Shown one piece after another: positions 26,090 to 46,492 of a stretch of 64,000 bases of DNA. This DNA is from Candidatus Poribacteria bacterium (lineage in GTDB: Bacteria > Poribacteria > WGA-4E > WGA-3G): NCBI GenBank assembly GCA_965214045.1, contig OZ243935.1, positions 2,316,994 through 2,380,993 of the forward strand. The letters are read 5' to 3'. The position numbers were made by a program, and so were the translations under genes. The notes under the pieces were generated by a model. It made no database searches. It was not told the DNA's origin and worked only from the letters and a program-made list of their open reading frames with translations. Numbering within the stretch: position 1 is the stretch's first letter; each line of letters starts with the position of its first letter.

Positions 26090-27334
26090 ATGACGAAGCA
26101 AGAATCCCACGACTTTAGGCGTGGGAGTATCAAAAGTACAATTCTGAACGTCTCACAAAACCACCATGTCCGCGGCGGTTCTGATAGATACTTTTTTACC
26201 CTCGCCGAGTTGTTACAAAAACACGGACATCGGGTCGTGCCCTTCACAGCCGCAAACCCTAATAACGAACCCTCCGAATGGGAACACTATTTCCCACGCG
26301 GTGCCGACTTCGAGCATCCCGGAGCAGGAGACCTACTGCGCTTTTTATATTCACACGATGCTGTTAAATCAATTCGACGGTTGTTGAAGGACACAGATAT
26401 CGACCTCGCGCATTTCCATATCTACTACGGTAAACTCACTGCTTCAATCTTGGAAGTCCTAAAAAAAGACGGAATTCCGCTCATCCAGACGTTACACGAG
26501 TACAAGTTAACCTGCCCAGTTTATAGCCATCTCTCAAACGATGAAATTTGCGAGGCGTGTGAAGGTAAACACTTTTGGCGCGCGCTCCCAAAACGCTGCA
26601 ACAGGGGTTCACTTGCGCGGACTGCGTTGAGCGTCACGGAGTCTTATGTATCACGCATCCTCGGTGCTGTTAAGAAATTCGACCATTTCATTTCCGTCTC
26701 TCATTTCCTTCGGAAAAAGATGATCTCACACGGCATCCCAGAAGACCAAATCTCAACCGTTCATAACTTTGTCGATGTCTCTGACATCACACCGAATTTC
26801 GACGTTGGGGATTATGTCCTCTACTTCGGACGGGTGCATCGGAGCAAAGGGATTTTGACATTGATAGAAGCGGCGGCACCGCTCAAGCAATGCCCGATCT
26901 ACATCGTCGGTGATGGTGAAGCAATGCCCGAAATTCAGCGGATCGTTGAAGAGAACGAATGTGATCATATTCACCTCCTCGGTTTTAAGCAGGGCGATGC
27001 GCTCCGGGAACTCATTCTGAATAGCATCTGCACAGTCTTGCCATCAGAGTGGTATGAGAACTGTCCGATGTCTGTCTTGGAATCCTATGCTTACGGCAAA
27101 CCGGTCATTGGTGCTGATATAGGTGGGATTCCAGAGCTCATCGTAGATGGCGTTGATGGATTTCTCGTTCCATCGGGTGAGCGAGAAGCACTTCGAGAGC
27201 GTCTCCTATGGATTTTTGAACATAGAAACGAGGCTGTCGAGATGGGACGCATGGGTCGTCAAAAGATGGAGACAGCGTTTAATGCCGACATTCATTATGA
27301 AAGGATTATGAATGTCTACCAGCAATTTTTGTAG
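26090..27334 (+). CDS. glycosyltransferase family 4 (GT-B, RfaG-like)
   Basis: Start at ATG 26090, preceded by an AGGAGG Shine-Dalgarno. C-terminal GT4 donor-binding region (...GFKQGDALRELILNSICTVLPSEWYENCPMSVLESYAYGKPVIGADIGGIPELI...). Confidence 0.75.
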   Translation: MTKQESHDFRRGSIKSTILNVSQNHHVRGGSDRYFFTLAELLQKHGHRVVPFTAANPNNEPSEWEHYFPRGADFEHPGAGDLLRFLYSHDAVKSIRRLLKDTDIDLAHFHIYYGKLTASILEVLKKDGIPLIQTLHEYKLTCPVYSHLSNDEICEACEGKHFWRALPKRCNRGSLARTALSVTESYVSRILGAVKKFDHFISVSHFLRKKMISHGIPEDQISTVHNFVDVSDITPNFDVGDYVLYFGRVHRSKGILTLIEAAAPLKQCPIYIVGDGEAMPEIQRIVEENECDHIHLLGFKQGDALRELILNSICTVLPSEWYENCPMSVLESYAYGKPVIGADIGGIPELIVDGVDGFLVPSGEREALRERLLWIFEHRNEAVEMGRMGRQKMETAFNADIHYERIMNVYQQFL

Positions 27335-27385
27335 TATCAATATCCAAGAATCTCGGTTATATGCCGCAATTTTGAAGGAAAAGAA

Positions 27386-29992
27386 ATGCGAATTTTAATT
27401 CTGTTATTGATTTTCTGCTTTTTATCCGCTACGTGGGGCGACATTCGATTTGAAGAGGTGTCACAGCAAGCGGGAATTACACGAATCGGTGAAAGTTGGG
27501 GCAACGCTTGGGGAGACTTTGATGGCGATGGTTACCTCGATTTATGGGCTACCAACCATAAGCAAAAACCCAGCCTCTATCGCAACAACGGTGATGGGAC
27601 TTTCACGGACATTATTGACGATGTTTGGGATGCGAATCCGCATGCAGACACACACGGTGTCGCTTGGGCAGATTTTGATAATGATGGAGACCAGGATCTG
27701 ATTGTTCTCTCAGGGGGTGGAGGCGGGACCAACGCAATAAATCCGAAACACAACAACCACTTCTATGTGAATGAAAATGGAATCCTAAAGGAGAAAGCTG
27801 CGGAATTTGGTATATCGCTTCCACTCCTCCGAGGGAGATCCCCTCTGTGGTTCGACTGGAATGGCGACGGGCGACTCGATCTTCTGGTCACCGGCAAAGT
27901 CCGTCCAGACCGGGCTGGTAACCTTGTAACTTCCTCAATCTTTCAACAGACTCCCAACGGCTTTGCGAATGTTAATGAAATAGCAGGATTCCGAGTCCCT
28001 GTAGACACCTCACTGGCACAGATGACGGATCTAACAAGCGATGGGAGTATGGAGATCTTTATTGACGGTAGAACCTATCCTGGAAGTGTCTATGATACAT
28101 CGGTGAAGCCGTTTAAGGAGTTGAGTGAGATGCTTAACATCCCGAAATTGCTCTATAACGTTCGGGATGCAGTATTCATGGATTTCAGCGGTGACCTGCT
28201 TATTGATGCCTTTCTGGCACGCGGAATCACCCGTAATTATATTGATACAAGAGCAGAACGTCAAATAAGAGCATACATTCAGGTGAACACCGGTGAGAAG
28301 GGTTTTAGTTTTAAAACAGATGGTGAAATCCGATTTGAAATCCATTCCGTTTGGGCGACGCGTTTAAAGCATTTATCTATCGGTGAAGCTGGACATAGCT
28401 TAACAGCATTTGATGGGGAATTTATCCCAAACGATCCTATCCGAAATGTTGCCTCCTTTGTGTTTGTGTTGAATCTTAATGATCCAAGGGTCATTGGACT
28501 CAAGCCACGTTCCGAAAACGAACTCTGGGGGATGTACGTCGGATACACCCCAAGTTCAAGACAGTGGACCCTATTATACCATACAAAGCCTGATATCCAA
28601 ACGAATTGGACTGGATTTGAAACACTTATCCAAGCTGACCAGCCAATTGTAGAGGTGGAACCCATAAACTTTTCTACATACGAACTCTCCTACCAACCTC
28701 GCTCTGTTCTTCTAAGCAGTCAGGAAAATCAGTTCGCACCAACGGCTACTTTTTTCGGAGCGATCAACGGACGTTCTGTTGTCGCTGGCGATTTTGATAA
28801 CGATATGGACGTTGATCTCTATGTCGTCCGATCAAGTAGTATCAGCAATTTCCCAAATCATCTTTATGAAAATCGAGGAGACGGCACTTTTGTTCAGTTA
28901 GCAGGAGCAGGTGGGGCGGCCGGAAGCACACAGGGTAGAGGACAAAGCGTTACAATGGCTGACTATGATAGAGATGGATACCTTGATTTTTTTGTCACCA
29001 ACGGTAGAGGTGCCTACCCCTTTAACGAGGGACCCGATCAGCTGTTCCGCAATATCAGCAGTGGCAATAATTGGTTACAAATCGACTTAGAAGGAACCGT
29101 TTCCAATCGTGATGGAATTGGCACGAGGCTTTTCGCAACCACACCTGATGGCAAGACCCAGCTCCGAGAAAACGGCGGCGGTATCCATTGGGCGCAGCAA
29201 GATCAGAAACGCATCCACTTTGGACTCGCACAGCATGAAACAGTCAGTGAATTAGTTATCCATTGGCCCAGCGGCATCATTCAAAAATTGAAAGACATAC
29301 CGGTAAACCAAGTCTTACGGGTCGTTGAGGCTGGTGGACGAACAACACTCTCTGCAGATGTCAATCAGGATGGTCAGGTAAATATACTTGACTTTGTTCT
29401 TGTCGTTAATCATTTCGGAGAAAATCCACCTACAAATCCTCGGGCAGATGTCAACAAAGATGGTGAGGTCAGTATTTTAGATCTCGTTTGGATTCTCAGA
29501 TCGGTTGAGAGCAACCGAGGGACTGCAGCCGCACCATATCATAAGGAGTATCGGTCTACTGAAAACCGTTTATCGGATGCTGACACCGCGTTGCTCGCTT
29601 CCTTTTACGGAAAGATTGAAGAAGTATCAACAAATGCTACACATAAGGAATTAGTCAAACGTTTTTTAAAAGCATGGTTGATATCTATTGAAGAACCGTT
29701 AGATACAAAACTCCATGCCAACTATCCAAATCCGTTTAATCCAGAGACGTGGATCCCGTACCAACTCGCGAAAAATAGCGACATCACAATACGCATCTAT
29801 GATGCCTCAGGACGTATTGTACGGACGCTCTTTACTGGACATCAAACTGCTGGATATTACTTGAGCCGCGGTGAAGCAGCGTATTGGGATGGCAAAAACG
29901 AGTTAGGAGAACAGATGGCGAGTGGGGTTTACGTTTGTGAGTTAGAAACACCGACGTTCAAACAGACAAGACGACTCGTTATACTGAAATAA
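27386..29992 (+). CDS. secreted FG-GAP/VCBS (CRTAC1/ASPIC-like) repeat protein with dockerin-like repeats and a T9SS C-terminal sorting domain
   Basis: Signal peptide present. Multiple DxDxDGxxD calcium-binding/FG-GAP units (WGDFDGDGYLDLW, WADFDNDGDQDL, DFDNDMDVDLY). Two dockerin-like segments (DVNQDGQVNILDFVLVVNHFGE, ADVNKDGEVSILDL). C-terminal NYPNPFNPETWIPYQL...IRIYDASGRIVRTL...GVYVCEL matches the Por_Secre_tail pattern. Confidence 0.7.
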   Translation: MRILILLLIFCFLSATWGDIRFEEVSQQAGITRIGESWGNAWGDFDGDGYLDLWATNHKQKPSLYRNNGDGTFTDIIDDVWDANPHADTHGVAWADFDNDGDQDLIVLSGGGGGTNAINPKHNNHFYVNENGILKEKAAEFGISLPLLRGRSPLWFDWNGDGRLDLLVTGKVRPDRAGNLVTSSIFQQTPNGFANVNEIAGFRVPVDTSLAQMTDLTSDGSMEIFIDGRTYPGSVYDTSVKPFKELSEMLNIPKLLYNVRDAVFMDFSGDLLIDAFLARGITRNYIDTRAERQIRAYIQVNTGEKGFSFKTDGEIRFEIHSVWATRLKHLSIGEAGHSLTAFDGEFIPNDPIRNVASFVFVLNLNDPRVIGLKPRSENELWGMYVGYTPSSRQWTLLYHTKPDIQTNWTGFETLIQADQPIVEVEPINFSTYELSYQPRSVLLSSQENQFAPTATFFGAINGRSVVAGDFDNDMDVDLYVVRSSSISNFPNHLYENRGDGTFVQLAGAGGAAGSTQGRGQSVTMADYDRDGYLDFFVTNGRGAYPFNEGPDQLFRNISSGNNWLQIDLEGTVSNRDGIGTRLFATTPDGKTQLRENGGGIHWAQQDQKRIHFGLAQHETVSELVIHWPSGIIQKLKDIPVNQVLRVVEAGGRTTLSADVNQDGQVNILDFVLVVNHFGENPPTNPRADVNKDGEVSILDLVWILRSVESNRGTAAAPYHKEYRSTENRLSDADTALLASFYGKIEEVSTNATHKELVKRFLKAWLISIEEPLDTKLHANYPNPFNPETWIPYQLAKNSDITIRIYDASGRIVRTLFTGHQTAGYYLSRGEAAYWDGKNELGEQMASGVYVCELETPTFKQTRRLVILK

Positions 29993-30041: not shown

Positions 30042-30131
30042 GCCCGTAATGAAATGGAGGGCGGATCTACGGAAAGGAACGTCAAATTTGAAACCGACCT
30101 GACCGAACCGCAAGATAAAATTAAAAAAGCA
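30042..30131 (+). promoter_or_regulatory. extended leader repeat with the core motif, upstream of the epimerase gene
   Basis: 88 of 94 nt identical to the 34672-34757 copy. Ends ...ccgcaagataaaattaaaaaagca, just before a TTG. Confidence 0.7.
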
Positions 30132-31112
30132 TTGGTCACAGGCGGTGCGGGCTTTATGGGCGCACACGTCGTTAATGAACTTCTCAACCAAGGTAACACA
30201 GACGTTGTTGCCCTTGATGACTTGAGCGGCGGTTTCCGTGAGAACCTGAACCCTGCCGCAACCTTTGTTGAAGGAAGCATCCTCGATGTTTCGCTAATAA
30301 ATCAACTCTGTAAGGAGTATCAATTCGATTATATCTATCATCTTGCCGCGTATGCAGCGGAGGGTCTCAGTCACTTCATCAAACGATTTAACTACCAGAA
30401 CAACCTCATCGGGAGCGTAAACCTCATCAATGCGGCAGTAAACTACAATGTCAAACGGTTTGTGTTCACCTCTTCCATTGCTGTTTACGGTGCGAATCAA
30501 CTTCCAATGCACGAAGCACTTACCCCAATGCCCGAAGATTCCTACGGTATCGCCAAATACGCTGTTGAACAGGAACTTCTTGTCGCAAAACGACTCTTTG
30601 ATCTGGATTATACCATTTTCCGTCCCCACAACGTCTACGGTGAACTCCAGAATATCGGTGACAAGTATCGAAACGTCATTGGTATTTTTATGAATAATAT
30701 TATGCAAGGGGAACCATTAGTTATCTTTGGAGACGGTGAGCAGACGCGCGCCTTCACACATATCGCCGATGTCGCTCCGCATATTGCACACTCTGTGGAT
30801 GTACCTGAAGCATCAGGAGAGGTTTTTAACGTCGGTTCGGATAAGCATGTTTCTGTCAACGAATTGGCAGACTTGGTAATGACGGCGATGGGGAAGGAAG
30901 TCCGTGTTATCAATGTGCGTGCGAGGGAAGAGGTTAAACATGCCTATTGCACACACGAAAAGTTCCACGAGGTCTTTGGAAAGACCTCGGAGGTCACGCT
31001 TCCGGAGGGTTTGGAAAGAATGGCAACATGGACGCAGTCCGTTGGACCACGAGCTTCCACCTTGTTTACTGACATCGAAATTCGCAAAAATCTACCCGAA
31101 AGCTGGAAATAG
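30132..31112 (+). CDS. NAD-dependent epimerase/dehydratase (extended SDR; UDP-sugar epimerase-like)
   Basis: Has the Rossmann motif VTGGAGFMG, a YxxxK block (YGIAKY) and a long C-terminal domain. The start is uncertain. The TTG at 30132 gives a typical M-VTGGAGF N-terminus. Upstream in-frame ATGs lie inside the leader repeat and are unlikely to be used. Confidence 0.7.
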   Translation: MVTGGAGFMGAHVVNELLNQGNTDVVALDDLSGGFRENLNPAATFVEGSILDVSLINQLCKEYQFDYIYHLAAYAAEGLSHFIKRFNYQNNLIGSVNLINAAVNYNVKRFVFTSSIAVYGANQLPMHEALTPMPEDSYGIAKYAVEQELLVAKRLFDLDYTIFRPHNVYGELQNIGDKYRNVIGIFMNNIMQGEPLVIFGDGEQTRAFTHIADVAPHIAHSVDVPEASGEVFNVGSDKHVSVNELADLVMTAMGKEVRVINVRAREEVKHAYCTHEKFHEVFGKTSEVTLPEGLERMATWTQSVGPRASTLFTDIEIRKNLPESWK

Positions 31113-31252
31113 GCAGGAGGTTAGCCGTCAGCAGTCGGTTGTCAGCAGTCGGTGAAGAGCGAATTATGGCATCAGGAAATACGCAACTGCCACAAGAATC
31201 TACCGAAAGCCGAAAGCCGAAAGCCGAAAGCCAGTATAAAACATTTTGGGTG

Positions 31253-32542
31253 ATGGCGATTACCTTTGCTGGAATGGGGTTGAGTCTTCTCGTCCGGGTC
31301 CTATTGATTCCAAAACGTTTCGGATTCGGCGATACAGCGGACGCACTCACCGCCGCATTAACGGTCGTGCTATTGGTGGATACGATTGTCCGAGAAGGTG
31401 CTAAATTCAGTCTTGTTCCAGTCTTTGTTTCAAACGAGAAGGAGATGACTCGCACGGAATACCAACGTTTCACCAATAGTCTCCTAATTTTGTTGCTGGG
31501 TATTGGTTTCGGAATTTTCATTCTGATTGAACTTTTTGCACCGTGGCTAGCTGGTGGATTGTTATCGAAATCGACTGTTGATGTGCAGAGGGTTACGGCA
31601 CTTTTGCGATTTTGTGCGCCTCTCCTTATCTTCGGATGTGGTAGTACTGTTTTGGGGGCTTTCCTAAACAGCCAGCAGCATTTCAAGACGGTTGCCCTCC
31701 GAAATGCTCTACCCGCTGGCGCCGCGGCATTTATATTTCTGTTCCTGTGGAACACGCAGCACCTTGAAAACTGGGTGGTAATGGCATACACAGGAGGATT
31801 TATCGCGTATTTTATATGGCTGTGCATCGGAGCATATCGAACGGGACATCGGTATGAATTTACAGGCGTTTCTGTGGACACGCTGCGTGATCTAAAAGAC
31901 ACGGTTACCCTGCCGACGCTCGGCTTCGGAATACGGCAAATCGTAAACCGCTTACTCGTTGAGGTGTACCTTGTTTCACAACTTGGAAGCGGAGCGATTA
32001 CGCTCTATAAGTCTGCTTTCCAAATCTTTTCAGCACTACAGACCCTTATCGGTATCAGTATTGCGACTACCGGCTTGCCTGATATGGCGGCAGCGGTGGC
32101 ACGCGATCACGACGCGACAAACGATAAAATGGAATTAGGGCGTACACTCAACCGAAACGCACGCACGGCTATCATCATCGGATTTCCAGTAACCTTGATC
32201 TTGCTGGTATTTCACGAACGGATTAGTTCGCTCTTGTATGGGAGAGGAACAATCGATCAAACGTCAATTGAATTGATAGGACAACTCCTCTTTTGGCTCA
32301 GTTCAGGAATGATATTCTCCTGTCTGATACCTGTACTAAATGCCGGACTTTACGCCCAAAAGTCCTATCGCGCTGTTTTCACAAATATGGTGACGATGGC
32401 AATCCTTAATTTTCTGCTGGCGTACGGATTAATGGAAACATGGTGGCTTCTATCTGTCTCGTTGTCTGTATCAATCACCGCGCTTCTTGCTGTTGGGAAC
32501 CTGACGTATCTCCTCCGAAGAACACGGGTATCTTGGTTCTAA
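31253..32542 (+). CDS. MOP-superfamily polysaccharide flippase (MurJ/Wzx-like)
   Basis: About 12-14 transmembrane segments, with a MurJ-like N-terminus MAITFAGMGLSLLVRVLL. The ATG at 31253 is preferred over the track start at 31139, because the upstream stretch is repeat-rich: (CCGAAAG)4 and CAGCAGTCGG copies. The starts at 31166 or 31139 remain possible. Confidence 0.6.
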   Translation: MAITFAGMGLSLLVRVLLIPKRFGFGDTADALTAALTVVLLVDTIVREGAKFSLVPVFVSNEKEMTRTEYQRFTNSLLILLLGIGFGIFILIELFAPWLAGGLLSKSTVDVQRVTALLRFCAPLLIFGCGSTVLGAFLNSQQHFKTVALRNALPAGAAAFIFLFLWNTQHLENWVVMAYTGGFIAYFIWLCIGAYRTGHRYEFTGVSVDTLRDLKDTVTLPTLGFGIRQIVNRLLVEVYLVSQLGSGAITLYKSAFQIFSALQTLIGISIATTGLPDMAAAVARDHDATNDKMELGRTLNRNARTAIIIGFPVTLILLVFHERISSLLYGRGTIDQTSIELIGQLLFWLSSGMIFSCLIPVLNAGLYAQKSYRAVFTNMVTMAILNFLLAYGLMETWWLLSVSLSVSITALLAVGNLTYLLRRTRVSWF

Positions 32543-32616: not shown

Positions 32617-32704
32617 AAGCCTGCAACAACGGCGCAGGCGACTTGAGAGAAGGCACTTCAAGCATGAAACCTACTCAATTACTCCGCAAGGTAAGTTTAA
32701 AAAA
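32617..32704 (+). repeat. start-codon cassette repeat (AAGCCTGCAACAACGGCGCAGGCGAC...AGAGAAGGCAC...ATGAAAC...CCGCAAGGTAAGTTTAAAAA)
   Basis: About 90-nt homology to 42250-42337. It includes the ATG at 32664 and the first 13 codons of the sulfotransferase. Confidence 0.75.
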
Positions 32705-33638
32705 TGTTGCGGACTATCGCTACCTCATCGTAGGCGGCACCACGAAGGCGGCGACAACGTCGCTGTTTGCCTACTTGGCGGATCATCCTGCTATTTGCGC
32801 TGCCACTTACAAGGAGACTCGGTTCTTTCTCAGCAGCGATTATCCGCTTCCTTCAAAATACCGGTATAAAGATGATGTTGAGGAATACAATCTTTTGTTT
32901 CCGGATGCTGATGGAACGCAGCTTCGGATGGAATCGACCCCCGACTATCTATATTGTGACGAAGCCCGTGAGAGAATTGCCACATCTCTGCCCGAGGCAA
33001 AGTTAGTCTTCAGTCTCCGTGAACCAATTTCCAGGTTAATCTCTTGGTATCGTTTCGCGAAACAAATTGGTAAGTTGCCCCAAACTTTGAGTTTTGACGC
33101 GTATGTTGAATTGCTTTTCGCTGCTACTAATCGCCATGAAGAGACAGAAGAACAGCACTTGCAAACACTTCAGCAGGGGTGTTATACTATCTATCTGAAG
33201 CACTATTTTAACCGATTCGGTCCAGAGCGTGTCCACATCCTTTTTTATGAGGAACTCGCGGCACAACCGGCGGATGCTATGGCAAAATTGTGTGACTTCG
33301 CTGGTATTGATGCCGGTTTTTATAGCGATTACGGGTTTAAAGTAACGAATCGCACCCAGCAGATGCGAAATTCTGAGTTGCATCAAAAATATAGGGACTT
33401 CCGGTTTCGATTACGACAGTGGACGCATAACAAACCGATCATTCATACCCCGTTGCGCTCAATAAGACGAACAATTGAGCCGCTCTATCTTCGATTGAAC
33501 ACACAGACGGGTGAGAAGGCGCAGATGTCAGAAGAAACACAGCACCGTTTGATCGATTATTACACATCGGATGTTCAGGCTCTCGACGAATTGATTGGGA
33601 AACCGATACCATGGAAAACTTGGGCAAAATCCAGTTGA
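32664..33638 (+). CDS. sulfotransferase-family protein (PAPS-dependent)
   Basis: 5'-PSB P-loop YLIVGGTTKAATTSL. 3'-PB region ...SLREPISRLISWY. Confidence 0.7.
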   Translation: MKPTQLLRKVSLKNVADYRYLIVGGTTKAATTSLFAYLADHPAICAATYKETRFFLSSDYPLPSKYRYKDDVEEYNLLFPDADGTQLRMESTPDYLYCDEARERIATSLPEAKLVFSLREPISRLISWYRFAKQIGKLPQTLSFDAYVELLFAATNRHEETEEQHLQTLQQGCYTIYLKHYFNRFGPERVHILFYEELAAQPADAMAKLCDFAGIDAGFYSDYGFKVTNRTQQMRNSELHQKYRDFRFRLRQWTHNKPIIHTPLRSIRRTIEPLYLRLNTQTGEKAQMSEETQHRLIDYYTSDVQALDELIGKPIPWKTWAKSS

Positions 33639-34534: not shown

Positions 34535-34610
34535 TTTTTTTTGATTTTACCTTGCGGAGTAACAACGTGCGTTTGGACTTTGACATGCGTTCCTTAAATC
34601 TGAAGAAATA
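34528..34610 (-). repeat. reverse-complement copy of the core motif plus a conserved 3' module immediately after a sulfotransferase stop
   Basis: ttttaattttttttgattttaccttgcgg is the reverse complement of ccgcaaggtaaaatcaaaa... It is followed by agtaacaacgtgcgtttggactttgacatgcgttcc. The same module occurs at 38906-38985. Confidence 0.7.
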
Positions 34611-37813: not shown

Positions 37814-37844
37814 ATAGTTGTTCATAGAGAGGCATGTTATTCTT

Positions 37845-37903: not shown

Positions 37904-38944
37904 ATGGTATTTGTTGTAGGGAATAGTCGCAGTGGTACAACAATGATGGGGCGGATTTTAGGAAAACACCCGAGTATTTATACTTTCGGGGAACTTCACT
38001 TTTTTGGTCAGTTGTGTGCCCCGCCGTTTTCATCGGAATCGCGTAAGGAGGAGATAGAAGAACTCGCCTCACAGTTACATTGTATTCAGCAAGAAGGGTA
38101 TCGCACGCATGGAAACCCACGTCGTTTCTTAAGCAAGGCAGAGTCCTTTCTTGAGAGTCTAATCACTTATCCTGAAACGCAAGCCGCGCTTTTTGAAGCC
38201 TTTCTCCACCATGTTGCTGCTGAGAATGGTGGTGCTATCCCTTGCGATCAAACACCGCGTAATGTCTTTTATATTGCCGATATCCTTCAGCTTTACCCGA
38301 AAGCTCGGATTATCAATATGATCCGTGACCCACGCGATGTGTTATTATCTCAAAAAAGGAAGTGGAAACGCCGGTTTCTCGGCGGGAGTGATCTGCCGAA
38401 AAAGGAAACGTTCCGTGATTGGGTGAACTATCATCCAATAATCATTAGTTACATCTGGCGCACCGCCGTCGCCGCTGCTGAGCAGTTTTTACAACACGAA
38501 CGAGTTACCTCCATCTATTTTGAGGAACTCCTCGCGCACCCTAAGGCAACTGTCAAACATCTCTGTGATTTTGTCGGTATTACTTACACGGATGCAATGC
38601 TCCAAGTACCGCAAGTTGGATCTTCTGTCGCGGAGGACCAGCCTCAGCAACTTGGCATAAATCCGCACCGAGCACACAGTTGGAACAGGAACACAACTGG
38701 CGGAGAGCTCAGTTCCGCTGAGATTTACCTTAACCAGACGATAACTGCAGCTCTCATGAAAACACATAACTATATCCCTGTGTCGGTGCGTCCAAATCTC
38801 GCACATTTGACACTACACCTATTGACCTTTCCTGTAAAATTAGTCGGGGCATTCCTTTTTAACCTTGATCGGATGAAAAGCATCCGTCAAACGCTAAAGA
38901 GACGGATTTTTAATTTACCTTGCAGAGAAACAACGGACGTTTGA
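37904..38944 (+). CDS. sulfotransferase-family protein
   Basis: VVGNSRSGTTMMGRIL (5'-PSB) and MIRDPRDVLLS (3'-PB). The last about 12 codons are encoded by the reverse-orientation repeat module. Confidence 0.7.
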   Translation: MVFVVGNSRSGTTMMGRILGKHPSIYTFGELHFFGQLCAPPFSSESRKEEIEELASQLHCIQQEGYRTHGNPRRFLSKAESFLESLITYPETQAALFEAFLHHVAAENGGAIPCDQTPRNVFYIADILQLYPKARIINMIRDPRDVLLSQKRKWKRRFLGGSDLPKKETFRDWVNYHPIIISYIWRTAVAAAEQFLQHERVTSIYFEELLAHPKATVKHLCDFVGITYTDAMLQVPQVGSSVAEDQPQQLGINPHRAHSWNRNTTGGELSSAEIYLNQTITAALMKTHNYIPVSVRPNLAHLTLHLLTFPVKLVGAFLFNLDRMKSIRQTLKRRIFNLPCRETTDV

Positions 38945-38985
38945 ACTTTGAAGTGCGTTTCTTCAGATATACGTAAAGGTACTTT
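38906..38985 (-). repeat. reverse-complement core motif plus conserved 3' module (second copy)
   Basis: tttttaatttaccttgcagagaaacaacggacgtttgaactttgaagtgcgtttc, homologous to 34528-34610. Confidence 0.7.
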
Positions 38986-39002
38986 ATTTATTAAACCCAC
39001 CT

Positions 39003-39029
39003 CACCGAACCGCAAGGAATAATTAAAAT
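39003..39029 (+). repeat. core motif copy abutting an ATG
   Basis: caccgaaccgcaaggaataattaaaat followed by ATG 39030. Confidence 0.8.
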
Positions 39030-40031
39030 ATGATTGCACAGATAGATTCACGTTATATTAAAACCCGCCCAACGAAGGTCCTAACGCGCCTGATGAGTTA
39101 TGCCCTCTTTGAAGGTCGTCCTGTAACCACGAAAGGTCGCTGGATAAATCCGCTCGTTTTTTCACTTTTGAAGAGGTTCGCTGCGAAGAGTAACACATAT
39201 AAATCTGTTGAAAAACCGATCTTCATCTTGGGGACCGGTCGCAGTGGCACTACGATACTCGGTATTGTGCTATCTATGCACAGGGAGATTGGCTATCTCA
39301 ACGAACCAAAGGCTATATGGCATCTCATCCATCCGCATGAAGACATTATCGGTAACTACAGTCAAGCGGATGCAAAATATCGACTCACTGCCGAAGATGC
39401 AACAAACGAAATGTGTCAGTGCGCTTCGCAGCTATTCGGTGCCTATTTGGCAGCAACGCGCTCAAAACGTCTGGTTGATAAGTATCCGGAACTCATCTTC
39501 AGGGTAGATTTCGTTCGCGCACTGTTTCCTGATGCTCGTTTCATTTTCCTTACCCGCAATGGGTGGGATACGTGCCATTCAATTGCAACATGGTCGGAAC
39601 GGCTCGGTATCCAGATCAATAGCGAGAAACATGATTGGTGGGGTGTGAATGACCGGAAGTGGAGGCTCTTAGTTGAGCAACTCGTTAAAACGGACCCTGT
39701 TTTTTCGAAATCTACTGATGAAGTTAAACGTATGGATCGACATCTCGATAGAGCAGCTGTGGAATGGATAGTCACTATGCGTGAGGGGCTTCATTTAATG
39801 CGAACGTCACCTGACTATATTCATCTTATTCGTTTTGAGGATCTGACATCACAGCCGGATGAAACCCTCTCGGCTTTATGTGACTTCTGCGAACTTCCAA
39901 TGGACACAACATTCCGTGAGTATGCTCGACAGACCTTGCATCCAGTACCTGCTAAAGAATCTTTTGATATTCATACGAAGATCGCACCACTTTTCCATGA
40001 TACCATGAGAGAAATGGGATATAATACTTAG
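39030..40031 (+). CDS. sulfotransferase-family protein
   Basis: ILGTGRSGTTILG (5'-PSB) and FLTRNGWDT (3'-PB-like). Confidence 0.65.
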   Translation: MIAQIDSRYIKTRPTKVLTRLMSYALFEGRPVTTKGRWINPLVFSLLKRFAAKSNTYKSVEKPIFILGTGRSGTTILGIVLSMHREIGYLNEPKAIWHLIHPHEDIIGNYSQADAKYRLTAEDATNEMCQCASQLFGAYLAATRSKRLVDKYPELIFRVDFVRALFPDARFIFLTRNGWDTCHSIATWSERLGIQINSEKHDWWGVNDRKWRLLVEQLVKTDPVFSKSTDEVKRMDRHLDRAAVEWIVTMREGLHLMRTSPDYIHLIRFEDLTSQPDETLSALCDFCELPMDTTFREYARQTLHPVPAKESFDIHTKIAPLFHDTMREMGYNT

Positions 40032-40101
40032 ATGAATTTTGAATTACGTATGGCGAGATGTATGCTCTTGCCTATTATTAAAGATCGGACGCATTCATAC
40101 A

Positions 40102-42194
40102 ATGCCCAAAGACCCAGTTAGACAAACAGGAAGACATTCTCCAACAACACATTCTTTTACCCGGCGGGACTTCCTCTCAACCAGTTTGAAAGCTGGTGCT
40201 GCTGCCTTCACGACTGGACTCTTACCGAAATGGAATGCTGACGCTCAAGGGCAGTACAACGTGTTATTCATCGTTGTGGATGACTTGCGACCTTTACTTG
40301 GGTGCTACGGGCATCCAGAGGTACACACTCCTAATATTGATAAGCTCGCCGAACGAGGAACGGTTTTCAACCGAGCATATTGCCAGTATCCTCTCTGTAG
40401 TCCGTCCCGGACTTCGATGATAACAGGATTACGCCCGGAAACAACAGGTGTGCTGAATAATTCGCAAAATTTTCGGAAGAAATTGCCTGACGCGATTACA
40501 CTGCCTCAGCATTTCAAAACACATGGGTATCATACCCAATCCGTCGGTAGAATCGCACACCTTCCACAACTCCAGGATGATGAAAACTCATGGAGCGTTG
40601 CATCATGGAGACCGTTATGGTTGCCTTTTGATATAGAAACGACCCCATCTTGGCAAGCACTTGATGTTGACGATGACGATCTCAGAGATGGTAAAACTGC
40701 GAGACGAGCAGTTCGGACCCTGAACGGGATTAAAGACCGGCAATTTTTCCTTGCTGTCGGATTTTACAAACCGCATTTGCCCTTTAAGGCACCGCGAAAA
40801 TATTTTGAATTGTACGATACCCAAAACTTTGATTTGCCTGCTTCTTCTGTATCACCTAAAGATGCCCCTGATAGCGCACTTACCAATTGGAGTGCGATCC
40901 GAGCTTATCAAGATCTGCCTTTGGGAACAACACCTCTCTCTGATGCTAAGACCTTAGAATTGATTCGCGCGTATGCCGCCACAACGAGTTATACGGATGC
41001 ACAAATTGGTCGTGTATTAGCACAGTTAGATACCCTCGGTCTTACGGAGAATACTGTCATCGTTTTTTGTGGTGACCATGGGTATCATCTTGGTGAACAC
41101 GGAATATGGGGAAAACAAACCCTTTTTGAAGTCTCTCTCAGATCTCCTCTGATTGTTAGCATCCCATACCAACAAAGTTCGGAGACTGAGGCTTTGACTG
41201 AACTTGTTGACATCTATCCGACATTATGTGATGCGTGTCACTTGCCTATTCCAACAGAACTTGAAGGCAGTAGTATGATGCCGGTTATTGAGCAACCGAC
41301 TCGTCCTTGGAAAACTGCCGCTTTTAGCCAATTCGGGGGGAGTTCGCACGGTGGCATATCTATCCGGACGGAACGGTATAGATATACTGAATGGGACGAA
41401 ACGGGAGTCGTGGTGTTGAACTCTATGATTATGAAGCGGATCCAGATGAGACCGTTAATATCGCGACGCAACCAGAAAATGCGGAACTCGTCGTACACCT
41501 CAGCGAACGGCTTCACGCCGGATGGCAAGCGGCTTTGCCGGATATGCGCCAGCAGGTTCCCGTTCCGCAAACATTACCGTGGGATATAAATAATGATGGC
41601 GTTGTTGATATCCGTGATCTTGTTCTAATTTCAAGTAGTTTTGGTGAGGAAACACCAGCACACCCGAAAGCTGATGTAAATAAGGATGGTAAAGTTAACA
41701 TTCTTGACTTGCTTCTGGTGGCTGCGCATTTCGGTGAATCCAGCACGCCTGCTTCGCCATCGACTCGTGCCAATATTAGCGCAGAGCATTTTGACTTGGT
41801 GGAGCAATGGCTGACTGAAGCACATCTCGCAAATGATGGTTCACTTCCTTTTCAGGAAGGTATTGCTGCTTTAGAGCGTCTAATGGATACAGGGGTACCT
41901 ATGGAAACAGTTCTCTTACCGAACTATCCGAATCCGTTTAATCCTGAGACGTGGATACCTTACGATTTGGCTGAAGATTCGGATGTCGAGATCCACATCT
42001 ATAATCTGAAAGGTGAAACTGTGCGGCAGTTATCGCTTGGTTTTCAAAGTGCTGGCACCTATCGGACTCGGTCTCGTGCGGCATATTGGGATGGTCGGAA
42101 TGCTATCGGTGAACCTGTGGCAAATGGTGTCTACTTTTATACGCTTCAGACGGGACAAATGACAGCGACACGCCAAATGGTGATATTGAAATAG
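40102..42194 (+). pseudogene. Tat-exported formylglycine-type sulfatase fused to dockerin-like repeats and a T9SS C-terminal domain; reading frame broken near 41405-41420
   Basis: Twin-arginine signal TRRDFLSTSLKAGAAAF. Sulfatase signature CQYPLCSPSRTSMITG. The sulfatase C-terminal box (RYRYTEW...VELYDYEADPDET) is split between ORF 40039-41589 and ORF 41391-42194, which are -1 apart. The downstream part carries DINNDGVVDIRDL / DVNKDGKVNILDL and NYPNPFNPETWIPYDL...IHIYNLKGE...GVYFYTL. Confidence 0.6.
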
Positions 42195-42201: not shown

Positions 42202-42337
42202 ATGAGAGATGAAATCTGCATTATTCACCCGCAAGATAAAATTAAAAACAAGCCTGCAACAACGGCGCAGGCGACAACAGAGAAAGGCACGTGAGAGATG
42301 AAATCTGCGTTATTCGCCCGCAAGGTAAAATTAAAAA
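42202..42337 (+). repeat. start-codon cassette: a partial copy (42202-42248) and a full copy (42250-42337), the latter including the ATG at 42298 and the first codons of the following gene
   Basis: atgagagatgaaatctgcRttattcRcccgcaagRtaaaattaaaaa occurs twice, separated by aagcctgcaacaacggcgcaggcgacaacagagaaaggcac. Homologous to 32617-32704. Confidence 0.75.
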
Positions 42338-43965
42338 TCTGTGTTTCAGTGTTCGTTTTAATTGCCGCAACAGTACAGGCTGCCTCGCTCATCAATGTTC
42401 CGCTCAATCCGGACTTGTCTGACTTTAATCGTGAAACCTACCGCTTTATTCATCGTTTACTTAACAAGCGGGTTTTACCCGGTATCCGGCGCGGTTCGTT
42501 GCCACTCACCCGTAAACAGGTTGTATCTTATCTGTTAGAGGTGGATCAGAAACAGAAAAACGGCGAAATCGCGTTGAGCGCTATTGACCAAGAGCGGCTA
42601 AACACACTATTAACCTTTTACCGCGAAGCTCGTGCGCCTATAACACAAAGCCCTGCCAGAAACCGACGATTGCATCTGCTGACAATGACCGGGAAAAAGA
42701 TGGACAAGGACTATCGGTTCTCTTTCGATGTGAGAGCTTCACAGCGTGTTATCGCGCATCTTATTGATAACTTGTCGGAGGAACAACCCAGTGAAGGAAA
42801 CATGCATGTTACCACCTTCTATCCACATCTCTATGGACAGGTGGGGGAAACGTTTGCCTTTACGACCGATATAGCACATAGGTTCGTCTACGGTGAATTT
42901 TTTGATGATTTCTTTCCTGATGAGACGAAAATTAGGCAATTGGAGGGTGGACTCAAAAACCGAACTGCTATTAACGCCTATCTGAAATTTGACTTGCCGT
43001 GGTTTGAACTGCAGCTTGGACAGGATACACTTCAGTGGGGACCTGGCTATCATGACAGCCTTTTGGTTTCCAAGAACCCGCTCGCTATGGACATGGTTAA
43101 ACTCCAAGCTACCTATAAACCTGTTACCTTCACAGCGTTCACCGGTATACTGGAGGATATGTCAGCGGAGATCAATCATAAGTATATTTCGGGACATAGG
43201 GTTGAGGGGTATTTCTGGGATAGGTTCGGTTTTGGTCTCTCTGAAGTCGTCGTTTACGGCGACCGTTTTGAGCCTGGGTATCTGAACCCAGTCAATATCT
43301 ACCTGATTAACGAGCAGCCGATTTCACGGGCAGATGGGCGCGTCCCCGGCAGTGGTGACAACGTCCTGATGAGTGTTGATATGCGGCTTCGTCTTGTAGA
43401 TGATTTTGAAATTTATGGCGAATTGATGGTGGACGATGGGAACCCCGCAGCGAATTTTAAACATTGGGATACGAAGTTTGGGGTCCTCGGTGGTATATAT
43501 CTAACAGACCCTTTTGGCATTGCAGATACTGACTTTCACGCTGAATACGCCTTTATAAACCAATACGCGTATACGCATGTAAATCCTGTGAATGTCTACA
43601 AACATTTTACCACGCCTATTGGACATCAGATCGGTTCTGATGCTGACAATCTATGGATAGAACTGCGTCGCCGATGGACAGATAGGCTTGAAACGACTTT
43701 CGGTTACGAATTAGAACGCCATGGGTCGGGTGGTATTGACAAACAACATCCGGTTGGTGCTCCAAAAGACGATGTTTGGACCCCGTTATCAGGTGTCACA
43801 GAAAGTGAGCACCGTCTCTCAGTCGGGGCTAACTGGGTTATTATCGGACATTATTCGCTCTATGCGGAGTGGGCACGCGTATGGAGAAGGAACTTGGGAA
43901 ATCGTAGAGATGTCCGCGAAAACGCGAATGAAATTGAAGCCAAATTCCTCTACCGGTTTCCCTAA
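42298..43965 (+). CDS. secreted outer-membrane beta-barrel-type protein, capsule-assembly Wzi-like
   Basis: Signal peptide with AQA|AS cleavage. Length and position in a glycan locus fit the Wzi family. Assignment tentative. Confidence 0.45.
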   Translation: MKSALFARKVKLKICVSVFVLIAATVQAASLINVPLNPDLSDFNRETYRFIHRLLNKRVLPGIRRGSLPLTRKQVVSYLLEVDQKQKNGEIALSAIDQERLNTLLTFYREARAPITQSPARNRRLHLLTMTGKKMDKDYRFSFDVRASQRVIAHLIDNLSEEQPSEGNMHVTTFYPHLYGQVGETFAFTTDIAHRFVYGEFFDDFFPDETKIRQLEGGLKNRTAINAYLKFDLPWFELQLGQDTLQWGPGYHDSLLVSKNPLAMDMVKLQATYKPVTFTAFTGILEDMSAEINHKYISGHRVEGYFWDRFGFGLSEVVVYGDRFEPGYLNPVNIYLINEQPISRADGRVPGSGDNVLMSVDMRLRLVDDFEIYGELMVDDGNPAANFKHWDTKFGVLGGIYLTDPFGIADTDFHAEYAFINQYAYTHVNPVNVYKHFTTPIGHQIGSDADNLWIELRRRWTDRLETTFGYELERHGSGGIDKQHPVGAPKDDVWTPLSGVTESEHRLSVGANWVIIGHYSLYAEWARVWRRNLGNRRDVRENANEIEAKFLYRFP

Positions 43966-44318: not shown

Positions 44319-44545
44319 ATATATGTAGAACCCAATCTGAAACAGAGACGAACTGTGCTTTGATAGCACAATTTAATCGCCTGAATTTATCTTGCGGTCG
44401 GTCCAGGGCGTTCTTGAAAAGAAGTTTTTCTGTCGCGTCCGTCCGGCGCGATGCTTGGACTACAATTGTTAGCCAAAGTGCATAGCTTGAAACGAAGTGG
44501 AAAGCGGGTATACGGAATAGAATATGAATTCACAGACTCACCTCT

Positions 44546-44570
44546 CTGAACCGCAAGGAAAACTGGAAAA
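44546..44570 (+). repeat. core motif copy abutting an ATG
   Basis: ctgaaccgcaaggaaaactggaaaa followed by ATG 44571. Confidence 0.75.
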
Positions 44571-45683
44571 ATGAGGATTAGGGTGTTGGGCATACGCGGG
44601 CTCCCCGCTACCTATAGTGGACTGGAAACTATCATGGGTGAACTTGCTCCCCGCTGGGTAGAAGCCGGTCATGAAGTTATCGTCTACTGCCGGAAGGCAC
44701 TTTTCAAGGAAAGACCTGCGGAATGGAATGGCATCAAGCTTGTTTATTTGCCAAGCATAGAGCATAAGATGTTCAGTACTCTGAGCCACAGTTTTCTCGC
44801 AACGATGCACGCTTCGGTTACCGCATCTGATGTCATTTTGACATGGAACGCTGGCAATGGTCCGTTCGGATGGTTCTTCCGTATTGCAGGGAAAACCGCT
44901 GTTATCAACGTGGATGGAATGGAATGGCTCCGTCCAAAATGGAAAGGGCTTGGCGCACTTTACTTCAAGTGGGCGGCAAAGATGGCGACAGCGGCGTTTC
45001 CAATTGTTATTACCGATGCTTCTGAAATGAAGCGTCTCTATCTTGAGGAATTGGGGGCGGAAACTACTTATATCGCTTATGGTGCGAACATTGAGCCTTC
45101 GAAACATCCAGAGATTCTGGAGACCTATGGGCTTAAACCCCGGAATTATTATCTTATTGCCAGTCGGCTTGTCCCGGATAACAATGCCGATCTCATTTTA
45201 GAGGCGTTCGTTGCTTCAAAGAGCCAAAAGCAACTTGCTATCGCTGGCGGCGCGGATTACAAAGGCAACAAACTTGAGAACGAATTTCTATCGAAATTAA
45301 AAAACATTGCTAACGAGAACGTCAAGTTTCTCGGACATATTGACGATTCTGAACATATTAAAGAACTTCACCATCACTGCTTTGCCTACGTTCATGGACA
45401 CCAGTTCGGTGGCATTAATCCTTCTATTCTAAAGGCGTTAGGGTTTTCCAACTGCATTCTTGCGCTGAATACACCCTTCAACGATGAAGTGCTGGCAGGT
45501 GGGTATTATGGGGTACTCTTTGATAAAAACGTGGCGTCTCTTACGGAAAAGATTCAGATGTTGGAACAACATCCAGAACAGGTTGAAAATTTCCGACAGC
45601 GTGCACCGGAACAGATCCGCAAACGGTTTAATTGGGAAAACATAGCACAGCAATATCTTGATGTTTTTGAAAAACTCCAGTAG
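44571..45683 (+). CDS. glycosyltransferase family 4 (WbuB/WcfP-like)
   Basis: GT-B fold with a C-terminal donor-binding region (...CFAYVHGHQFGGINPSILKALGFSNCILALNTPFNDEVL...). Confidence 0.7.
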   Translation: MRIRVLGIRGLPATYSGLETIMGELAPRWVEAGHEVIVYCRKALFKERPAEWNGIKLVYLPSIEHKMFSTLSHSFLATMHASVTASDVILTWNAGNGPFGWFFRIAGKTAVINVDGMEWLRPKWKGLGALYFKWAAKMATAAFPIVITDASEMKRLYLEELGAETTYIAYGANIEPSKHPEILETYGLKPRNYYLIASRLVPDNNADLILEAFVASKSQKQLAIAGGADYKGNKLENEFLSKLKNIANENVKFLGHIDDSEHIKELHHHCFAYVHGHQFGGINPSILKALGFSNCILALNTPFNDEVLAGGYYGVLFDKNVASLTEKIQMLEQHPEQVENFRQRAPEQIRKRFNWENIAQQYLDVFEKLQ

Positions 45684-45934
45684 GACTAACTTTTATCGGT
45701 TGCCCGTGATATGTATAAAGCCCTGAAAATTTCGTCAGGGCTCTGTTATGCAAGTTAGTATAATCTCGCAACCCTACGCCTAACATTTGGATTGCGATAG
45801 AGGAATTAACCATGCCATTCCTATCAAGAAGCATAAATCAGATAGGAAAAGATGCAGGCAGAACTGGCTTGCAAGCTTCGCCAAAAATATCAAAGACAGG
45901 GATTCTTGTGGAACGACTTTCCTCTTTCTACGCA

Positions 45935-46492
45935 ATGCGTGGCAAACATTTGTTCGATGCTATTGCTGCATTTCTCCTTATCATTATCTTTGCCCCTCTA
46001 ATGGTGCTGATTGCCATCCTAATTAAGATCACCTCACGTGGTGCCGTCTTTTTCTCACACAAGCGGGTCGGTTTAAATAACGAACTGTTTGTTATCCATA
46101 AATTTCGGAGTCTGCATGTGGATACGCCGTCCTACTCCGAAAAGCCTGGTGCGATTGATGATAAACGCATTACACCGATCGGTAGATGGCTCCGTAAAAC
46201 GAGTTTGGATGAGTTGCCTCAACTTTTCAATGTACTAAAAGGCGAAATGAGTCTGGTGGGTCCGCGTCCAGAAATGCCCTTTCTTGCTGAGCATTATGAG
46301 CCGTCGGAAAACCAACGCCACCTCGTCCGCCCGGGGATGACAGGTCTCTGGCAGCTGAGTCCACGTCGACAAGGGACAATCCGAGAGGGTATCCCTGTTG
46401 ATTTGGAGTACATTGAGAATCTATCCTTCTGGAACGATTTCAAAATACTCCTCCGAACCTTCAAGGTCTTTTGGGATAGCAACACCTATTAA
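45935..46492 (+). CDS. small undecaprenyl-phosphate sugar phosphotransferase (PglC/WbaP C-terminal-domain type), initiating transferase
   Basis: MRGKHLFDAIAAFLLIIIFAPLMVLIAILIKITSRGAVFFSHKRVG...KFRSL...DELPQLFNVLKGEMSLVGPRPE is the bacterial sugar transferase signature. The track start at 45812 is probably too early. Confidence 0.75.
   Translation: MRGKHLFDAIAAFLLIIIFAPLMVLIAILIKITSRGAVFFSHKRVGLNNELFVIHKFRSLHVDTPSYSEKPGAIDDKRITPIGRWLRKTSLDELPQLFNVLKGEMSLVGPRPEMPFLAEHYEPSENQRHLVRPGMTGLWQLSPRRQGTIREGIPVDLEYIENLSFWNDFKILLRTFKVFWDSNTY

Follow-up and report, generated by a model that had tools for sequence, protein, structure and literature searches.

A syntenic Candidatus Poribacteria locus with four sulfotransferases: a candidate pathway for a sulfated surface glycan

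Poribacteria have been described as sulfatase-rich bacteria that degrade sulfated polysaccharides (PMC8546597, PMC5649159). Does a locus of ~20 kb in one of their genomes also encode the synthesis of such a glycan? The locus occupies positions 26090 to 46492 of the + strand in a stretch of 64,000 nt from a Candidatus Poribacteria genome (the whole stretch is referred to here as the window), and an original prediction made from the letters of the window had read it as a Wzx/Wzy-type locus carrying four sulfotransferases. We identified its genes from an open reading frame (ORF) listing and from Pfam, NCBIfam and PDB searches of the window proteins (Table 1). The predicted gene list, its coordinates and its shared orientation were confirmed almost line by line, with every gene between 19415 and 46925 on the + strand, and the locus does resemble a lipid-linked glycan pathway in which four sulfotransferases of the type that uses 3'-phosphoadenosine 5'-phosphosulfate (PAPS) are embedded. 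Two further elements of the prediction, a sulfatase fusion and a repeat ahead of almost every gene, need correction and are treated below. Our reading, to which we give a probability of about 0.6, is that a sponge-associated Poribacterium uses the products of these genes to assemble a heavily sulfated glycan for its cell surface on a lipid carrier, by a Wzx/Wzy-type route.

Four divergent sulfotransferases in a conserved gene order

The hidden Markov model annotation that the original prediction had called for places all four sulfotransferases (ST1 to ST4) above the Pfam gathering cut-off. The remaining gene list is likewise above cut-off, with two exceptions: the Wzy match lies below its cut-off and the hydrolase has no Pfam family above cut-off. 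A lack of PAPS-binding residues had been named as the observation that would overturn the sulfotransferase assignments. What we found is a 5'-phosphosulfate-binding loop (5'-PSB; K/R-x-G-T-T/S) and a 3'-phosphate-binding (3'-PB) Arg...Ser motif in each of the four, conserved at 90–98% or more in 67–72 orthologs, and since both motifs are present and conserved the assignments stand. The two motifs are GGTTKAATTS and REPISRLIS in ST1 (at least 90% conserved in 69 orthologs), GAQKAGTSS and REPVARAYS in ST2 (conserved in 70), GNSRSGTT and RDPRDVLLS in ST3 (at least 98% in 72) and GTGRSGTT and RNGWDTCHS in ST4 (conserved in 71), and they align with the corresponding loops of the solved structures 3rnl and TPST2. 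Among PDB entries, ST2 matches the bacterial sulfotransferase 3rnl (E 2e-31), heparan sulfate 3-O-sulfotransferase-1 (E 1e-13) and NDST; ST3 matches TPST2 (E 6e-11) and the CurM sulfotransferase.

Pairwise identity is 24% between ST1 and ST2 and 23% between ST3 and ST4, so that each pair consists of old, distinct enzymes and not of recent copies. The retention of four long-separated enzymes across the Poribacteria loci suggests four distinct sulfation specificities. A scan of the protein sequences found no signal peptide or transmembrane (TM) segment in the sulfotransferases, the glycosyltransferases or the epimerase; export features are present in the hydrolase, the Wzi-like protein, the sulfatase and the propeller protein. 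Because PAPS is cytoplasmic, sulfation would most likely take place on the lipid-linked unit before it is flipped.

We retrieved related loci using the hydrolase as query, with one genome per species, and compared them with the window proteins by tblastn. The resulting 80 loci comprise 73 from Candidatus Poribacteria (metagenome-assembled genomes (MAGs) and single-amplified genomes, 63–90% identity) and seven from Latescibacterota MAGs. Many of the Poribacteria loci originate from sponge-microbiome surveys, and some of the Latescibacterota belong to the same MAG series. All but four of the 73 Poribacteria loci (69) contain the complete set of ST1 to ST4. Among the exceptions, three are on short contigs, and one (L070) is full-length and has no epimerase-to-ST2 segment. 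The order epimerase–flippase–ST1–ST2–Wzy–hydrolase–ST3–ST4 is retained in 64 of the 73, and wherever the contig extends far enough the Wzi-like gene, GT4b, the priming transferase and DUF983 come next (the Wzi-like gene is syntenic in 49 loci and DUF983 in 29). The occurrence of four sulfotransferases within ~7.4 kb (32664–40031) is therefore not a matter of chance, the same four being present in 69 of 73 loci. Given this synteny and shared gene set, the locus is an old, fixed feature of this sponge-associated Poribacteria group and not a peculiarity of the window. The Wzy-like protein is 73–96% identical in 72 loci. GT4b has a median identity of 94% across 43 loci, reaching 100%, against ~77–86% for the other locus proteins in those species. 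An exact-sequence look-up of ST3 in public assemblies returned no record.

Table 1. Genes, neighbouring features and repeat copies of the glycan locus, in window coordinates
Feature	Positions	Strand	Evidence and remarks
NosD-like right-handed beta-helix lipoprotein	23828-24739	+	Pfam NosD E 1.4e-7; lipobox LAVGIGC; possible upstream member
TnpB (IS605 OrfB) insertion	24951-26045	+	Pfam OrfB_IS605, Cas12f1-like_TNB; outside pathway
GT4 glycosyltransferase (GT4a)	26090-27334	+	Glycos_transf_1 E 4e-29, Glyco_transf_4 E 3e-21; no TM segment
Secreted CRTAC1-like FG-GAP/ASPIC propeller with dockerin and C-terminal sorting domain	27386-29992	+	FG-GAP_3, UnbV_ASPIC, Dockerin_1, FlgD_ig
NAD-dependent sugar-nucleotide epimerase/dehydratase, GalE-like	30006/30054-31112	+	Epimerase E 1.5e-53; start codon uncertain
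MOP flippase, MurJ/MVF type	31166-32542	+	Pfam MurJ (PF03023) E 9e-44
ST1, heparan-sulfate-sulfotransferase-like	32664-33638	+	Sulfotransfer_3 E 9e-13, Sulfotransfer_1 E 1e-12; 49 bits
ST2	33611-34534	+	Sulfotransfer_1 E 1.6e-11; 44.5 bits
Wzy_C-family polytopic membrane protein (polymerase, ligase or O-oligosaccharyltransferase)	34758-36137	+	Wzy_C E 4.4e-6, 27 bits vs cut-off 31.7
Clan GH-A retaining glycosidase, GH51/GH79-like, lipobox	36134-37813	+	Fold and family profile
ST3, Sulfotransfer_3/TPST-like	37904-38944	+	Sulfotransfer_3 E 5e-32; 112 bits
ST4, Sulfotransfer_3 family	39030-40031	+	Sulfotransfer_3 E 4.6e-27; 96 bits
S1 sulfatase, S1_7-like, with two dockerin repeats and C-terminal sorting domain, frameshifted	40102-42194	+	Sulfatase PF00884 E 4e-45
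Wzi-like outer-membrane protein	42298-43965	+	Caps_assemb_Wzi E 2.6e-23, 83 bits vs cut-off 30; signal peptide
GT4 with DUF1972 (GT4b), Cps2T-like	44571-45683	+	Glycos_transf_1, DUF1972
Small polyprenyl-phosphate glycosyl-1-phosphate transferase (initiating)	45812-46492, alternative start 45935	+	Bac_transf E 1.9e-63
DUF983 small membrane protein, conserved downstream neighbour	46566-46925	+	DUF983 E 1.3e-8
Reference repeat copy	34694-34763	+	Ends ..CCGCAAGGTAAACTTAAAAAATG; repeat families D1-D5
Other repeat copies	30064-30133, 32640-32709, 37819-37906, 38966-39035, 42203-42248, 42274-42343, 44507-44576	+	
Inverted repeat copies	34538-34594 (after ST2), 38907-38962 (after ST3)		Inverted pairs I1, I2, I13

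Assembly proteins, hydrolase and exported sulfatases

The initiating transferase contains one hydrophobic helix and also matches EPS_sugtrans and the WcaJ C-terminal domain (E 1e-78). GT4b matches the model for the Cps2T beta-1,4-rhamnosyltransferase (E 1e-53) and the epimerase that for GalE (148 bits), each below the cut-off of the model, and the flippase scores 140 bits against TIGR01695, below the equivalog cut-off of 236. We counted 13 partly overlapping hydrophobic segments in the flippase (~10 distinct) and 11 in the Wzy-like protein (~6 distinct). No PDB sequence match was obtained for the Wzy-like, Wzi-like or NosD-like beta-helix proteins, and phmmer detected no match of the Wzi-like protein to the solved Wzi structure. 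As with Wzi of the Escherichia coli K30 group 1 capsule, the Wzi-like protein scores above the Caps_assemb_Wzi cut-off, has a signal peptide and is encoded in a Wzy-type locus; unlike K30 Wzi, it has no Wza, Wzb or Wzc partners in the window and lacks that phmmer match.

A lipobox (FFAVGC) and a start that overlaps the Wzy stop (ATGA) lead us to regard the hydrolase as exported and as an integral part of the operon. With Pfam, only a sub-threshold GH79 match and no GH51 match was found for the protein itself, and only sporadic weak GH79, GH39, GH53 and GH_cc matches for 62 diverse relatives. The family is large: an exhaustive search of representatives gave 2,634 relatives, 756 of the representatives being at E ≤ 1e-10. 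It is a clan GH-A family outside the copy of Pfam that we used, and precomputed annotations assign PF22848 to orthologs of the hydrolase. An AlphaFold model built from the 62 diverse relatives reached a predicted local distance difference test score (pLDDT) of 93.4, whereas one built from 30 close orthologs reached 43. Foldseek matched the model to GH51 arabinofuranosidases (E 3e-26, TM score ~0.7, 14–17% identity) and next best to a GH79 beta-glucuronidase (E 1e-20), and the family profile matches GH51 structures over the full length (E 2e-26). The model has the GH-A architecture of a (beta/alpha)8 barrel with a beta-sandwich, the acid/base Glu on strand 4 (GNE) and the nucleophile Glu on strand 7; Glu219 (GNE) and Glu342 (TEWN) are invariant in the 62 relatives. 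According to the model, the hydrolase is a retaining clan GH-A enzyme with a fold closest to GH51 and then to GH79. PslG, encoded in the Pseudomonas psl operon, is a periplasmic GH39 hydrolase, also of clan GH-A, whose gene stands beside that of the polymerase in a Wzx/Wzy-type exopolysaccharide (EPS) operon. The Poribacteria hydrolase likewise belongs to clan GH-A and is encoded in an EPS-type operon next to a Wzy-like gene; it differs from PslG in being closest to GH51/GH79 (at 14–17% identity) and in being a predicted lipoprotein. It is a fixed member of the operon and may serve in the trimming or turnover of the polymer.

A different setting was found in the seven Latescibacterota loci, in which none of the other genes of the locus was detected beside a 66%-identical hydrolase relative. 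In the one that we annotated (L073, OZ242320.1, 6341–12949) the order is PhyH dioxygenase–sulfatase–Na+/solute symporter–hydrolase–PhyH, and the relative carries a Sec signal. This context looks catabolic and hints, from gene neighbourhood, that the family acts on a sulfated glycan. It also suggests that the gene may have been exchanged between Poribacteria and Latescibacterota, with a catabolic use in the latter. A proposed homology between the beta-helix protein of the window and a beta-helix protein of L073 was rejected; the two are not homologous.

The sulfatase carries a TAT-type (twin-arginine translocation) RRDFL signal and the formylglycine motif CSPSR, LCSPSRTSMITG (C/S-x-P-x-R). Its PDB matches are the S1_7 ulvan sulfatase 6hhm of Formosa agariphila (E 8e-92) and human iduronate-2-sulfatase (E 1e-60). 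These enzymes share with it the CxPxR formylglycine motif; unlike these S1_7 sulfatases, the locus enzyme has a TAT-type signal, two dockerin repeats, a sorting domain of the type IX secretion system (T9SS) type and a frameshift. The original prediction had described a sulfatase–dockerin–sorting-domain fusion. The domains are all there, SGSH_C (split over two ORFs) being followed by Dockerin_1, FlgD_ig and Por_Secre_tail (PF18962, 28.7 bits vs a cut-off of 27), and the fusion is intact in L005, L009 and L011. It is not a single ORF in the window: a deletion of one nucleotide splits the gene by a −1 frameshift into two overlapping ORFs (40039–41589 and 41391–42194). Compared with the three intact orthologs, one G is missing from a GGGG run at 41393–41395, so that positions 41390–41398 read GAATGGGGAC in the orthologs and GAATGGGAC in the window. 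The only other split gene that we saw, which encodes a WD40-repeat protein (13655–15761; ORFs 13655–14209 and 14175–15761), breaks at a run of eight C near 14176–14184. The breaks at a G-run and a C-run suggest homopolymer-length assembly errors or phase-variable tracts, and in view of the second break at a C-run we give an assembly error at a homopolymer no lower odds than a genuine pseudogene.

Across the 55 loci that span the ST4–Wzi junction, the slot holds 0, 1, 2 or 3 tandem sulfatase–dockerin–sorting-domain genes in 17, 15, 12 and 11 species, respectively. Where it is empty, the ST4–Wzi spacing is as little as 66–211 nt and up to ~1 kb, and 4.7 kb in L038. With 0–3 copies across the 55 species, the sulfatases are accessories that recur at one fixed site yet can be dispensed with. 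The propeller protein, which is encoded at its position in many but not all orthologous loci, matches TIGR04183 Por_Secre_tail in NCBIfam (33.3 bits vs a cut-off of 23) and has human cartilage acidic protein 1 (9etn, E 5e-21) as its best PDB match.

The predicted pathway, its alternatives and its closest relatives

Starting from the domain identities, PAPS motifs, catalytic residues, predicted topology and synteny described above, we infer a pathway whose order of steps, sulfation before flipping, polymeric product and any role in symbiosis are all predictions. The small phosphoglycosyl transferase (45812–46492) would prime undecaprenyl phosphate. The Cps2T-like GT4b and GT4a would then extend the sugars, with the GalE-like epimerase providing one sugar nucleotide. 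The four soluble, divergent and PAPS-dependent enzymes ST1 to ST4 would add sulfate to the short lipid-linked unit while it still faces the cytoplasm, after which the MurJ-type flippase would carry it to the periplasmic face and the Wzy_C-family protein would polymerise or transfer it. Chains would be trimmed or released by the GH51/GH79-like lipoprotein, possibly in the manner of PslG, and the polymer may be held at the surface by the Wzi-like outer-membrane protein. The exported accessory proteins, namely the S1_7-like sulfatases and the CRTAC1-like propeller, may edit the polymer or attack sulfated glycans of the host.

Several observations weigh against this pathway. The locus is known from its genes alone, and its sulfated product is a prediction. 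The flippase is MurJ-like and not a PST-type Wzx, and the Wzy assignment lies below the Pfam cut-off in a family, Wzy_C, that takes in Wzy, WaaL and PglL alike and does not distinguish them here. Four sulfotransferases stand against three sugar-adding enzymes, an unusual ratio, and some of the four may have other acceptors. The sulfatase is frameshifted in the window and has no copy at its site in 17 of 55 species. The 66%-identical Latescibacterota relative of the hydrolase stands in a catabolic-looking setting with a sulfatase and a sugar symporter. Finally, among the window ORFs scanned there was no cysD, cysN, cysC, cysH or cysQ and no Wza, Wzc/Wzz or WaaL. The same scan returned no FGE, anSME, T9SS machinery component or regulator, and the locus has no domains of a polysaccharide co-polymerase (PCP) or of regulators to correspond to XssK and XssQ/R/S. 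With respect to sulfate supply, an assimilatory sulfate reduction module has been reported in Poribacteria (PMC8546597); the report is suggestive of the formation of adenosine 5'-phosphosulfate (APS) and PAPS, and is no proof of an APS kinase. Synteny and motif conservation strengthen the interpretation, which we regard as plausible; the sulfated product and the supply of PAPS are predicted, and a link of the sulfatase to the polymer is putative.

If the Wzy_C-family protein were not a polymerase, the product of the locus could be a short sulfated oligosaccharide passed on in one piece: a WaaL-type ligase would place it on lipid A-core, as a sulfated lipooligosaccharide or O-unit, or a PglL-type O-oligosaccharyltransferase would attach it to proteins as sulfated O-glycans. 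The weak match to Wzy_C (27 bits) would accommodate this, and a priming transferase with only two GT4s resembles the three-sugar pgl-type pathways. The absence of a chain-length regulator and of Wza/Wzc from the window ORFs points the same way, as do the lipid A genes lpxI, lpxA and lpxC-fabZ located 3–6 kb downstream, the first of which is syntenic in about a dozen loci. Against transfer en bloc stand the Wzi-like protein (83 bits), a capsule-retention component that is syntenic in 49 loci, and a dedicated periplasmic glycosidase overlapping the Wzy stop, which suits the processing of a polymer better than that of a trisaccharide; we consider such a transfer unlikely. The acceptors themselves can also be questioned: structurally, ST3 and ST4 come closest to protein-tyrosine sulfotransferases and to a polyketide sulfotransferase, and four sulfotransferases serve three sugar-adding enzymes. 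That some or all of the four act on lipids, on peptides (by tyrosine sulfation) or on small metabolites nevertheless seems most improbable to us: all four are interleaved with the flippase, Wzy-like, hydrolase and Wzi-like genes in an order fixed in 64 of 73 loci, ST1 and ST2 are similar to 3-OST and NDST, which act on carbohydrates, and the Sulfotransfer_3 family includes polysaccharide sulfotransferases of cyanobacterial clusters (PMC8205485).

A third alternative concerns only the accessory proteins and is compatible with the lipid-carrier pathway: the sulfatases and the CRTAC1-like protein may be unlinked to the core and serve to forage host or dietary sulfated glycans. The number of sulfatase genes varies from none to three among species and empty slots can be short, the propeller protein is variable too, the window copy is frameshifted, and the published picture of Poribacteria as sulfatase-rich degraders of sulfated polysaccharides fits such a role. 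However, the sulfatases occupy the same slot in 38 of 55 species and their tandem paralogs have diverged (~67–80% nucleotide identity), and a constant slot together with diverged paralogs argues for retention and not for random insertion. Moreover, an assembly error may account for the frameshift, given that the break lies at a homopolymer in both of the split genes seen in the window, and the adjacency of sulfatase and sulfotransferase genes suits editing. We rate foraging as a serious possibility, somewhat short of even odds; either role fits the sulfatases, as editors of the polymer made by the cell itself or as foraging enzymes encoded in a permissive slot. The proposal in the original prediction that the sulfatase acts on the same polymer stays conjectural, given 0–3 copies according to species and a frameshifted copy in the window. 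A more ambitious reading, which joins synthesis and editing, is that a glycosaminoglycan (GAG)-like coat with more than one sulfate per sugar imitates the glycans of the sponge matrix and aggregation factor, so that the symbiont is tolerated and not phagocytosed, and that a species-variable array of surface-tethered S1_7-like sulfatases with dockerin and sorting domains edits its sulfation extracellularly, as the eukaryotic Sulf enzymes do on heparan sulfate, in a bacterial 'sulfation code'. This is a speculative proposal that we think is probably wrong.

The closest characterised analogue of the locus, judged by gene content, is the synechan xss cluster of Synechocystis sp. PCC 6803, a Wzx/Wzy-type cluster with two sulfotransferases and eight glycosyltransferases that makes a sulfated EPS (PMC8205485). 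Both combine a priming transferase, glycosyltransferases, a flippase and Wzy with embedded sulfotransferases of distinct subfamilies. The outer-membrane exporter for xss is encoded outside the cluster (PMC8205485), and none is found in the Poribacteria locus either. Whereas xss has two sulfotransferases to eight glycosyltransferases, a PCP and XssQ/R/S, the Poribacteria locus has four sulfotransferases to two GT4s and a primer, with no PCP or regulator, and it adds a GH51/GH79-like lipoprotein, a Wzi-like protein and a variable array of exported sulfatases. Phylum and lifestyle also differ, and the likeness is drawn from gene content. The rarity of sulfotransferases in such loci, which the original prediction had stressed, is a reasonable claim, since the xss paper reports none in other bacterial EPS clusters (PMC8205485). 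The closest ecological parallel is Pontiella sulfatireligans F21, a marine, sulfatase-rich bacterium that both degrades and makes sulfated GAG-like polymers (PMC7356697). Like the Poribacteria, it is a non-cyanobacterial bacterium with a PF13469 sulfotransferase within a glycosyltransferase cluster (PMC7356697). Its putative EPS cluster contains one sulfotransferase among eight GT2/GT4 genes, with no reported Wzy, Wzi, hydrolase or sulfatase, and its product was detected chemically, whereas the Poribacteria locus is known from genes. On our reading the Poribacteria locus would work like xss and the Pontiella cluster; it departs from them in the sulfotransferase-to-glycosyltransferase ratio, the GH51/GH79-like lipoprotein, the Wzi-like protein and the sulfatase array of variable size that is built into it.

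Animals and algae commonly contain sulfated polysaccharides, which are rarely documented in bacteria, where synechan is the one genetically dissected pathway. In the literature searched, from which subscription-only papers lay outside the scope, we found no paper linking Poribacteria to sulfotransferases or to the biosynthesis of sulfated glycans, and searches pairing Poribacteria with cysC or dockerin gave nothing relevant. If our reading is true, a syntenic four-sulfotransferase locus carries the biosynthesis of sulfated glycans to a dominant uncultured sponge symbiont, and Poribacteria, so far seen purely as consumers of sulfated glycans of the host, become likely makers of their own. The sponge matrix is itself rich in sulfated glycans, and the locus would be a testable candidate for how sponges distinguish symbionts from food bacteria. 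It would also offer a compact set of ~12 genes for the heterologous production of highly sulfated glycans.

A dispersed repeat and the surroundings of the locus

The window contains 23 matches to the core CCGCAAGGWAAAWTTAAAA (with up to three mismatches), where 0.17 would be expected; this core forms the 3' end of a repeat unit of 70–100 nt. The original prediction had placed this repeat before almost every gene of the locus and had taken it as a sign of coordinated control. The first statement was too strong: copies precede or overlap the start of seven of the 15 locus genes (epimerase, ST1, Wzy, ST3, ST4, Wzi and GT4b), with a weaker copy at the start of DUF983 just beyond the locus, and in a scan of the window for the core none was found before GT4a, the propeller gene, the flippase, ST2, the hydrolase, the sulfatase or the priming transferase. 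Beyond the locus the window has another eight or nine copies, of which several stand ahead of genes for a PALP enzyme, RecD2, a SASA esterase and Pnkp (two tandem copies, 20945–21135) and of an ORF near 63.4 kb.

The start codons of ST1 and Wzi lie inside the repeat, which codes for their first ~13 residues (MKxxxxxRKVxLK). Orthologs of the epimerase begin ATGAAAAA.. (MKKKALVTGGAGF); in the window and in three close relatives (L001, L002 and L006) a repeat copy turns this ancestral ATG into ATT, and in the window an in-frame ORF passes through the copy. In other Poribacteria the orthologous intergenic sites are occupied by repeats of other families or have no spacer. In front of the Wzy, ST3 and ST4 orthologs (L001–L071) we observed tracts of CTGATAA/CTGACAA heptamers, a 'GAAAACCTGCCTGAAACGTAGTGGAAGGCAG' hairpin unit and variants of a CCGCAAGG unit, and in deeper-branching species there is almost no spacer at these three sites. 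The intergenic spaces of the operon have been colonised repeatedly by repeats.

That the repeat is a dedicated cis-regulatory element coordinating the expression of the locus finds some encouragement in its distribution, with 13–14 of the 23 core matches inside the 20-kb locus (~3 times the density elsewhere in the window) and with most copies terminating exactly at a start codon. The copies are in both orientations, however, and no Rfam match was found anywhere in the window at gathering thresholds. Moreover, since the repeat precedes only about half of the locus genes, also stands ahead of unrelated ones and is swapped or absent in the orthologs, it is not a locus-specific regulator, and the idea of coordinated control was not supported; we regard such an element as very unlikely. 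Three specific functions were considered and set aside. As a structured leader RNA, five copies fold no better than shuffled sequence (z −0.6 to +0.4). As a sigma-70 promoter, the copies contain no promoter-like match, and matches are fewer than in shuffled sequence. As a conserved regulator of the locus, the repeat was rejected on account of the other repeats, or none, at the orthologous intergenic sites. In our view it is a dispersed repeat that varies between lineages and whose end has the A-rich start-codon context that these genomes typically show.

Upstream of the epimerase ortholog in L014, L034, L008 and others we noted a TATAAT followed after 7–8 nt by the ATG, and the repeat ends TAAAAT-TAAAAA-ATG. 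Such −10-like contexts may give leaderless or very short-leader transcripts in Poribacteria, and it is our guess that the repeat contains a −10 of the leaderless type (TAAAAT, 6–7 nt, ATG).

Directly upstream of the locus region, Hen1 (19415–20812) and Pnkp (21130–23697) form a bacterial RNA-repair pair. The NosD-like lipoprotein gene lies directly upstream of GT4a in ~13 orthologous loci without the TnpB insertion; in the window that insertion, which is not at this position in orthologous loci, separates the two genes. A further solo TnpB gene is found at 61259–62368, in addition to the one at 24951–26045, and the other mobile elements of the window are an IS607-like pair at 17363–19091 (a MerR-HTH serine recombinase with TnpB) and an IS4/IS5-type DDE transposase at 12644–13540. 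On the far side of the locus, lpxI, lpxA and the fused lpxC-fabZ occupy 49345–52504 on the − strand, and the arrangement of these lipid A genes is kept in several Poribacteria loci.

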